Assembly: GCA_001818495.1 (NCBI GenBank)
Contig: MHKS01000004.1
Span: forward strand, 84,657-148,656
Source: Candidatus Komeilibacteria bacterium RIFOXYD1_FULL_37_29
GTDB taxonomy: Bacteria; Patescibacteriota; Patescibacteriia; UBA1558; GWA2-36-10
Length of the DNA: 64,000 nt
Reading direction: 5' to 3'
Positions 50,252-50,449 of this stretch are shown here, piece by piece. The stretch's first letter is position 1, and each line of letters opens with the position of its first letter. The notes below the pieces were generated by a model. It had not been told where the DNA came from. It worked only from the letters and a program-made list of their open reading frames with translations, and did no database searches. The translations under genes were made by a program, and so were the position numbers.

Positions 50252-50282
50252 ATAAATTACGGGGTCGTAGTTCAGCTGGTTA
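50252..50282 (+). repeat. Partial 5' copy (31 nt: 9 nt of flank plus the first 22 nt) of the downstream tRNA-Asp gene
   Basis: Exact direct repeat of 50364..50394, followed by a G+C-rich hairpin CCCGCC...GGCGGG. Confidence 0.7.
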
Positions 50283-50372
50283 CCTGCCCGCCTTCGCGAG
50301 CATCGCTCGGGATCAGGCGGGGAACGTATTATAAAACAGGTTTTGGTAGAAAGTATATTAAAAATAAATTAC

Positions 50373-50449
50373 GGGGTCGTAGTTCAGCTGGTTAGAACGT
50401 CTGCCTGTCACGCAGAAGGTCGAGGGTTCGAGTCCCTTCGATCCCGCCA
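50373..50449 (+). tRNA. tRNA-Asp (anticodon GTC)
   Basis: Acceptor GGGGTCG/CGATCCC with one G-U pair, anticodon loop CTGTCAC, T-loop TTCGAGT, CCA encoded. Confidence 0.85.

Follow-up and report, generated by a model that had tools for sequence, protein, structure and literature searches.

In a stretch of 64,000 nucleotides (nt) from Candidatus Komeilibacteria bacterium RIFOXYD1_FULL_37_29 (GenBank assembly GCA_001818495.1, contig MHKS01000004.1, positions 84,657 to 148,656; termed the window), the intact tRNA-Asp(GTC) gene, identified by ARAGORN and Rfam (70.9 bits), and the intact tRNA-Ser(TGA) gene are each preceded by a partial copy of their own 5' end, and the nature of these two units is the subject of this analysis (see Table 1 for coordinates). 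At tRNA-Asp, 9 nt of 5' flank (ATAAATTAC) and tRNA nt 1-22 constitute an exact 31-nt direct repeat with a distance of 112 nt from start to start (repeat finder), as reported in the initial annotation of the window; the chance expectation of a 31-mer repeat in 64 kb is approximately 1e-10 (own arithmetic). The 81 nt between the repeat copies are devoid of an open reading frame (ORF). The upstream copy is broken at nt 22 in the D-loop (GGTTA) by a palindromic 39-nt insertion (CCTG-CCCGCC...GGCGGG) and resumes behind it with GAACGT, corresponding to tRNA nt 23-28 (direct reading against 50395-50400); it is longer than originally noticed, reaches from the flank to nt 28, and is both split by the palindrome and truncated. 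The predicted spacer hairpin, beginning CCTGCCCGCC..GGCGGG, was confirmed: the palindrome contains a perfect 7-bp stem (50287-50321), and the spacer alone folds at −28.6 kcal/mol (z = −3.6; one of 200 shuffles as good). An AT-rich filler of 36 nt separates the fragment from the second repeat copy. The upstream copy is thus a dead, displaced 5' gene fragment that forms, together with the filler, an insert of 112 bp which separates the putative promoter from the intact gene and is dispensable.

The sole sigma-70-like match near tRNA-Asp (TTGCTA-17-TATTAT) is situated 5' of the fragment, and relatives show a TATTAT box with a TTGNNA hexamer ahead of it at the same position; therefore, the unit probably lies in the transcribed leader of tRNA-Asp. 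No match to the filler was detected elsewhere in the window or in any fetched locus (about 150, designated by L numbers), further copies of the Asp and Ser spacers were absent from the same set, and neither the filler nor the whole Asp spacer is significantly similar to the native 5' flank. Rfam families did not match fragment or spacer even at E <= 5, and scanning the window revealed no further tRNA-like fragments. A simple tandem duplication was rejected, as only 31 of 112 nt are repeated and the spacer is unrelated to the native flank.

The tRNA-Ser(TGA) repeat measures 43 nt with one mismatch (in the flank) and comprises 7 nt of flank and tRNA nt 1-36, ending inside the anticodon; 94 nt lie between the copies of this 137-nt unit. 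Its spacer contains two hairpins, the second of which (TCCCGCCAAAGGCGGGA) has the length of a T-arm (17 nt) and ends in TCCCG..CGGGA like the palindromes of tRNA fragments from other genomes. The subsequent ACCTCC stretch resembles a 3' acceptor strand and pairs with the 5' end of the Ser copy; therefore, the whole copy folds in a cloverleaf-like manner with swapped arms. In total, two of the four window tRNA genes carry a 5'-partial duplication, whereas tRNA-Arg and tRNA-Ser(GCT) are without such a copy. The initial annotation considered the occurrence at a second tRNA gene unlikely to be chance, which is borne out by these two cases and by many other genomes. Its concept of one structured element common to both genes had to be abandoned on the grounds it had itself named: the spacers are non-homologous (local alignment, p = 0.31), sharing only the GGCGGG arm, and the two remaining tRNA genes are unduplicated.

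Presence and absence of the units among near-identical strains

Searches with the exact Lgt or PyrD-like protein of the window yielded about 20 conspecific contigs from several assemblies and samples; those fetched are 99.3-100% identical to the window, and most carry the Asp unit. In L003/L143 (SPAdes, 2x coverage) and L145 (MEGAHIT, k127), the window flanks enclose a single repeat copy without spacer, the junction expected of a true empty allele being flank, one repeat and GAACGTCTGCC; a junction between two units (circle or tandem copies) would instead read ...GTATATTAAAA + ATAAATTACGGGGTCGTAGTTCAGCTGGTTA + CCTGCCCGCC. Besides the unit, the sole difference between L145 and the window is a cluster of single-nucleotide polymorphisms 3.5 kb away. 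The empty Asp site, observed in assembled contigs rather than reads, is probably real, because a contig built with k = 127 should not be able to skip a 31-nt repeat by graph collapse. Likewise, L125 from a 99.9% identical strain lacks exactly the Ser unit. The Asp (112-nt) and Ser (137-nt) units are dispensable.

A third state was found in L009 (JGI 3300009031, Ga0103682_10032392), whose first 2926 nt match the window without difference and extend across lgt, the fragment, the palindrome and the spacer; past ...AAAAATAAA (after window position 50368), positions 2927-3056 consist of unrelated sequence in place of the second repeat copy and tRNA. This tail (CTCCCTTAGTGGGAGTTTTT..., a hairpin and the start of a membrane-protein-like ORF, MKRNKVLKIVGFSFLSIL...) could represent a larger insert, a rearrangement or a chimera. 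A viral contig scan for the tail gave no matches, and its ORF of 25 amino acids was too short to serve as a query. As separate strain-level observations, L007 (JGI 3300025117) shows a 22-nt deletion in the tRNA-Asp T-arm at window 50420-50441 (GCAGAAGGTC|CCGCCA), i.e. a dead allele or an assembly error, and L127 (ENA ERZ28563792, scaffold_1216; corresponding to window 19665-19668) is a variant scaffold with an N-gap; a tRNA-Ser(GCT)-like 3' part and approximately 50 nt of GC-rich hairpin sequence are added between tRNA-Ser(TGA) and tRNA-Arg in the latter, representing further variation in this tRNA cluster.

The exact presence or absence at both loci among strain-level identical contigs would agree with live, non-autonomous mini-elements of 112 bp (Asp) and 137 bp (Ser) that integrate and excise via the 31-43-bp identity to the tRNA 5' end through an enzyme encoded elsewhere in the genome, the empty sites being unoccupied or excised alleles. 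This explanation appears unlikely. It would account for the occupation of two different tRNA genes within 64 kb, for the identical tandem units in L102, L112 and L122, and for the long-kept identity between fragment and gene that is expected if recombination needs identity; moreover, the 2-3-nt palindrome centres of many units (see below) typify DNA sites of dimeric proteins, not RNA hairpins. However, a double-stranded circle of 112 bp is implausibly small, the Asp and Ser units have no common recognition sequence aside from the GGCGGG arm, a candidate enzyme is missing from the 64-kb window, and deletion between direct repeats of 31-43 bp accounts for the polymorphism without mobility.

The tRNA-Asp locus in related Patescibacteria

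Among 80 relative loci collected through Lgt, tRNA-Asp is usually located after lgt. The gene is clean, i.e. without fragments, in L011, L013, L016 and L098, while fragments are present on one or both sides of the intact gene in L014, L015, L107 and L017; further variants concern L017 (tRNA-Asp), L055 (tRNA-Met) and L024. L015 and L016 share their flanks, L015 being L016 plus insertions. A nested plan is common to L014, L015 and L107: an outer 5' fragment (nt 1-38) with a TCCCG..CGGGA-type palindrome is followed by a spacer, the intact tRNA within a 15-bp leader/trailer helix, a second spacer, and an outer 3' fragment interrupted by a CCTGCCCCG..CGGGG palindrome. Comparison of the outer fragments with the intact gene of the same genome revealed a single difference in 194 positions, whereas the spacers are only 64-73% identical between the genomes; therefore, gene conversion or selection is to be assumed in these three loci. 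An archaeal-type bulge-helix-bulge intron in the outer copies was rejected upon inspection, as the central helix would require a 4-nt complement to the anticodon-loop exon, which is missing at the insert ends (an inference; a splicing endonuclease was not searched for).

The leader/trailer helix of the relatives exhibits compensatory changes in 10 of 15 pairs, with 95% of cells paired. In the alignment of L014, L015, L107 and L098 (A2), the intact tRNA-Asp tips a leader/trailer helix of 11-15 bp followed by a T-run, which may function as a processing or termination stem; the window tRNA-Asp is without such a helix. In L091-L097, representing two of the nearest relatives examined with respect to Lgt (68-69% identical), a UbiA-family gene overlaps with or directly adjoins lgt, which is not followed by tRNA-Asp; therefore, the region 3' of lgt is a variable junction in this clade.

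tRNA fragments with palindromes beyond the phylum

A single metagenome scan for the tRNA-Asp 5' end repeated at a distance of 95-125 nt, by which the unit length but not the palindrome is biased, returned 23 loci from AT-rich as well as GC-rich genomes. About 19 of the 23 consist of a fragment and an intact gene rather than tandem genes, and in nearly all, a GC palindrome of 15-21 nt takes the place of, or interrupts, the anticodon arm, D region or T-arm. The typical fragment comprises nt 1-27/31, a palindrome for the anticodon arm, nt 44-50/57 and then a spacer; the palindromes (TCCCG..CGGGA in AT-rich, GTCCGCG..CGCGGAC in GC-rich genomes) are often 16-17 nt long in place of the 17-nt arm, and many have centres of 2-3 nt. 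In AT-rich loci, TCCCG..CGGGA-type palindromes are confined to the fragments; of the perfect GC-rich hairpins in each of these loci, approximately half or more belong to the fragments. Some units form tandem arrays of two to five. A viral contig scan for the repeated tRNA-Asp 5' end gave no matches.

Two side observations concern these loci. In L103, L105 and L114, an inverted copy of the tRNA 3' end (nt 77-61) is placed 11-27 nt before the start of tRNA or fragment (e.g. L105 410-426, 514-530); in these GC-rich genomes, the leader could pair with the acceptor 3' strand, or 17-bp inverted repeats could bracket the gene. In L115, a long array of clustered regularly interspaced short palindromic repeats (CRISPR; Rfam CRISPR-DR2, 29-4637) ends approximately 600 nt from at least four tRNA-Asp fragment units (5259-5742), a proximity that is probably coincidental.

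The alignment of eight units revealed neither conserved RNA structure nor covariation beyond the palindrome; with this result and the missing Rfam family, a known cis-regulatory or leader RNA was rejected. A function of the fragment is given little probability. The fragment might be a structured 5' leader that modulates folding or processing of the downstream tRNA, or else a homology arm or decoy that acts as DNA and protects an essential tRNA gene, present in single copy, against nucleases or integrating elements. Such a function would suit the position in the presumably transcribed leader, the cloverleaf-like Ser copy with arms swapped for equal-length hairpins, the outer fragments of L014, L015 and L107 that stay identical to the gene while their spacers diverge, and the covarying helix of the relatives, which indicates that leaders of this clade can be under selection. 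On the other hand, the unit is dispensable in near-identical strains and absent from close relatives, array units drift by substitutions in the D-arm and palindromes (L110, L115), no structure is conserved apart from the palindrome, and most fragments are without the 3' strands for a tRNA-like fold.

The spacer can be recognised as a diverged copy of the native flank with significance only in L103 and L105, and marginally in L108. In the former two GC-rich loci, the gene flank repeats the fragment flank for 26-28 nt, as predicted for a tandem duplication, and could point to local rearrangement without any mobile element: replication slippage or template switching at a highly transcribed, hairpin-rich gene, or homology-facilitated illegitimate recombination with imported DNA anchored on the tRNA, with the palindrome arising later. 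Patescibacteria depend on DNA uptake, and a ComF-like protein is encoded in the window; the breakpoints coincide with tRNA loops (D-loop nt 22/28, anticodon nt 35-38, T-loop nt 57), and the arrays expand like ordinary tandem repeats. Nevertheless, such an origin is considered distinctly unlikely, given that the spacers of the window and of other AT-rich loci are unrelated to the native flank, which is incompatible with a simple tandem duplication, and that both the GC palindrome at or in place of a stem-loop in virtually every fragment and the recurrent fusion of a GIY-YIG ORF to the fragment (see below) would be left unexplained.

GIY-YIG and integrase genes beside tRNA fragments

In L103, L105, L114, L117 and L119, tRNA-Asp is followed at a distance of 20-43 nt by an ORF of 83-86 amino acids encoding a GIY-YIG protein (Pfam PF01541, as verified for L103 and L119). 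The TAG of ...GTTAG|AACG, in the D-loop of a pseudo-tRNA, serves as the stop codon of this ORF, and the pseudo-tRNA continues with a palindrome and tRNA nt 44-77. Palindrome-bearing fragments are located on both sides of the tRNA and nuclease genes, and in L105 and L119 there are additional units that retain only a few codons of the ORF. In L122, a tyrosine integrase gene follows tRNA-Asp, and in L062 a patescibacterial GIY-YIG gene is placed directly after the transfer-messenger RNA (tmRNA) gene. As a check free of scan bias, homologues of the L062 protein were collected by protein similarity alone; both of the two looked up are encoded at a distance of 45-110 nt from the end of a tRNA-Gln gene and are preceded by GC-rich palindromic leaders. 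A plasmid search with a GIY-YIG protein remained without match. Most small patescibacterial GIY-YIG proteins of the homologue list are known only from contigs of 0.5-2 kb, which suggests that their genes sit in repeats that break assemblies.

GC palindromes occur directly 3' of tmRNA in L015 and L062, accompanied by the GIY-YIG ORF in L062; neither is present at the window tmRNA, which was detected by Rfam (122.7 bits) and missed by ARAGORN.

Neighbouring genes and other features of the window

The tRNA-Asp site is preceded by gatC/gatA, dsbA and lgt, the relatives of the window Lgt being patescibacterial, and followed by genes for pyrD-like, pyrF, pyrE-like, DUF378, EamA-RibF, VanZ and rplT. 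The pyr block has a GC content of 45.8% compared with 37.4% of the window, the highest of all 2.5-kb segments, and is absent from every syntenic relative (L013 and L015 run from tRNA-Asp towards DUF378/VanZ-rplT...tmRNA). PyrF is identical to an NCBI protein of Candidatus Komeilibacteria bacterium RIFOXYD2_FULL, and close homologues exist in different contexts of other Patescibacteria. The sister species already has tRNA-Asp followed by the three pyr genes; both of its Logan-assembled contigs (L134, L146) begin inside tRNA-Asp at nt 47, so that the 5' side is not covered.

The foreign island which the initial annotation placed at the 3' side of tRNA-Asp is therewith established as compositionally deviant and lineage-specific, and the absence from related strains that was proposed as a check holds for the syntenic relatives; it does not hold for the sister species or for the unit-empty contigs, all of which retain the pyr genes. 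The implied connection with the duplication, i.e. that the repeat is an att scar of pyr island integration at tRNA-Asp, has an almost negligible probability. It could invoke the GC-richness of the pyr genes, their absence from syntenic relatives and their start 155 nt after the tRNA; the repeat, however, concerns the 5' end and is located on the opposite side of the gene, a second copy of the tRNA 3' end is missing from the window including the 13.5 kb downstream, there is no recombinase among the neighbouring genes, the tRNA-Asp/pyrD-like/pyrF/pyrE-like order pre-exists in the sister species, and L003 and L145 lack the unit yet keep the island. The pyr island is real and, because it is older than the species while the 112-nt unit is polymorphic among near-identical strains, unrelated to the latter.

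The kinship with a palindrome inside comF had been deduced from the strings CTTCGCG and CGGGATC; these exist, but 10% of hairpin shuffles share at least two 7-mers as well, and homology was thus rejected as within chance. The comF palindrome (CCCGCG TA CCGGGATCCCG CTT CGCGGG) is GC-rich and nested, and is found within the first approximately 15 codons of the ComF-like ORF, just past the end of the upstream gene.

Table 1. Positions of the tRNA-associated units and of further features in the window
Feature	Position	Strand	Basis or remark
Isolated GC palindrome	5647..5667		
Ser repeat copy 1: 7 nt flank and tRNA-Ser(TGA) nt 1-36	19434..19476	+	43 nt, one mismatch in the flank
Ser spacer hairpin 1 (CTGTTTGTCC..ACAAACAG)	19481..19517	+	Folding
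Ser spacer hairpin 2 (TCCCGCCAAAGGCGGGA)	19521..19537	+	Folding
Ser repeat copy 2: start of intact tRNA-Ser(TGA) (19578-19665)	19571..19613	+	43 nt, one mismatch in the flank
ComF-like ORF	20707..21447	−	
comF palindrome	21404..21431		
Isolated GC palindrome with GTAGCGAGGGG	42559..42595		
Putative sigma-70-like promoter (TTGCTA-17-TATTAT)	50212..50240	+	Consensus match
Asp repeat copy 1: 9 nt native flank and tRNA-Asp nt 1-22; start of the displaced dead 5' fragment	50252..50282	+	Repeat finder
GC-rich palindromic insertion of 39 nt (CCTG and CCCGCC..GGCGGG, inner GAGC/GCTC stem) between nt 22 and 23	50283..50321	+	Reading, folding
GAACGT, tRNA-Asp nt 23-28; the fragment resumes, then breaks off	50322..50327	+	Direct reading
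AT-rich filler, 36 nt	50328..50363	+	No matches elsewhere
Asp repeat copy 2: 5' flank and start of the intact gene	50364..50394	+	Repeat finder
Intact tRNA-Asp(GTC)	50373..50449	+	ARAGORN, Rfam (70.9 bits)
Weak hairpin and T-run, terminator-like	50456..50482	+	By eye; scan tool made no call
pyrD-like, pyrF, pyrE-like: GC-rich lineage-specific insertion between tRNA-Asp and the conserved DUF378..VanZ-rplT..tmRNA backbone; outside the repeat unit	50604..53079	+	Composition, synteny
tmRNA	56466..56850	−	Rfam

Origin and significance of the units

With a confidence that stays somewhat below even, we favour the interpretation that the Asp unit is what a recombination cassette directed at tRNA genes has left behind, a scar devoid of an ORF. 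This interpretation draws on the anatomy of the interrupted copy, its dispensability with precise boundaries, the recurrence of the design in other genomes and its co-occurrence there with GIY-YIG genes. According to this model, incoming DNA with the 5' flank and 5' part of the tRNA would have joined the resident gene within the D-arm region, either by nuclease-induced gene conversion or by site-specific recombination of the Campbell type; the join would have rebuilt an intact tRNA gene and displaced the old 5' end upstream. A candidate for the enzyme might be sought among the small GIY-YIG nucleases or tyrosine integrases whose genes adjoin units of the same design elsewhere. Today, the unit would probably be co-transcribed as a long 5' leader, presumably without function, and removed by RNase P, and it may be lost by recombination between the 31-bp repeats.

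Several findings weigh against this interpretation. A motif scan of the window revealed no GIY-YIG gene, and there is no recombinase gene among the neighbours of the units; neither nuclease nor integrase nor any ORF is present in or beside the two units, so that the GIY-YIG link is one of architecture only, and the GIY-YIG cassettes occupy the 3' side of the tRNA and the window units the 5' side. The Asp and Ser spacers are dissimilar to each other, and alignment of the window hairpins with hairpins from other loci gave no significant similarity (sole match: a 10-12-nt loop), the short motifs in common being the CCTGCCC prefix and the TCCCG..CGGGA ends. The model provides no source for the palindrome and the 36-nt filler and does not account for the continuation of L009 past the spacer into unrelated sequence. 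The fragment identity in L014, L015 and L107, which needs ongoing gene conversion or selection, is awkward for a purely dead scar.

A more far-reaching proposal is doubtful and only tentatively put forward: an undescribed family of selfish cassettes, composed of a minimal Slx1/YhbQ-like GIY-YIG gene (about 85 amino acids) and short GC palindromes, might reside at tRNA and tmRNA genes in Patescibacteria as well as in several other phyla, where the cassettes would invade and rebuild the RNA gene and leave "arm-swapped" pseudo-tRNA fragments; the window units would belong to this family as members without an ORF, with gain and loss still ongoing in the population. In the literature, whose coverage was incomplete, neither palindrome-swapped tRNA fragments nor GIY-YIG ORFs with their end in a pseudo-tRNA were found to be described; apparently, there is no earlier account of the palindrome-swapped form that lacks an element, nor of its fusion to minimal GIY-YIG genes. 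Partial copies of tRNA genes are usually interpreted as footprints of large integrated elements, whereas here they occur without an element and with a regular signature, the swap of a stem-loop for a GC palindrome; they vary among near-identical strains, recur across phyla and are in several cases fused to a minimal GIY-YIG gene. If the cassette interpretation is true, it would reveal a new route for selfish DNA into essential single-copy RNA genes of very small genomes, provide a testable role for the widespread stand-alone GIY-YIG proteins, and account for many anomalies in tRNA annotation and breaks of metagenome contigs at tRNA genes; if it is false, the units would still be a useful strain-level marker and a caution for tRNA annotation.

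Comparison with known systems

Partial tRNA copies arise from integrating elements (PMC9897764, PMC3293823), and archaeal examples include a 5' fragment before the intact tRNA-Gln gene at PYG1 of Pyrococcus yayanosii (PMC9897764) and a 5' tRNA-Thr fragment in Caldiarchaeum (PMC3293823). The window units resemble the attL/attR sites of such elements in the arrangement of partial copy and intact gene as direct repeats, in the identity block that runs from an internal loop to just past the gene end, and in presence or absence precisely at the repeat (L003/L143 and L145 empty for Asp, L125 for Ser). They differ in the distance between the repeats (81 nt for Asp and 94 nt for Ser versus 1.8-23 kb in the archaeal cases), in the absence of a recombinase (the neighbours of the Asp unit are lgt and the pyrD-like gene) and in the splitting of the fragment by a palindrome. 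In bacteria, as Williams is said to have stated in 2002, the duplicated tRNA part is normally the 3' end; in the Asp unit, the duplicated part is instead the 5' flank and nt 1-22/28.

The free-standing GIY-YIG homing endonuclease SegB of phage T4 is located in a tRNA gene region (PMC2330249) and also drives segmental amplification (PMC13096335). Similarly, the GIY-YIG gene of the related loci is directly beside a tRNA gene with duplicated or amplified segments around it. In contrast to SegB, these proteins (83-98 amino acids) consist of the catalytic domain only, without DNA-binding domain; the genes are chromosomal in uncultured bacteria, with an ORF that ends inside a pseudo-tRNA, and the window is without such a gene. 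Group I introns have been described at position 35/36 of tRNA-Asp and tRNA-Asn in Patescibacteria (PMC13011429), i.e. in the same phylum and the same tRNA, and the Ser copy breaks at approximately nt 35/36; the spacers, however, are of about 100 nt, and an intact, uninterrupted gene follows instead of a 3' exon. An intron remnant was rejected, as RF00028 did not match at gathering score or E <= 5 and the subsequent gene is complete.

Insertion of a transposon or miniature inverted-repeat transposable element was rejected as well, since the duplications are 31 and 43 nt instead of a fixed 2-15 bp and the palindrome is internal to the fragment, not terminal. Within the class of "palindrome-marked tRNA fragments beside GIY-YIG cassettes", set up ad hoc for the present analysis, the window units share the partial copy adjacent to an intact tRNA and the GC palindrome in or for a stem-loop (the 39-nt insertion and TCCCGCCAAAGGCGGGA, respectively; similarity to other members not significant), while a GIY-YIG ORF next to the tRNA is missing from the window. 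Rickettsia palindromic elements and the GC clusters of yeast mitochondria are small, mobile GC-rich palindromes that insert into genes. The palindromes analysed here are likewise short and GC-rich and reside in gene-derived sequence of an AT-rich genome; in contrast to both, they are not dispersed but confined to tRNA-derived fragments, in which they often replace a stem-loop by a hairpin of similar length.

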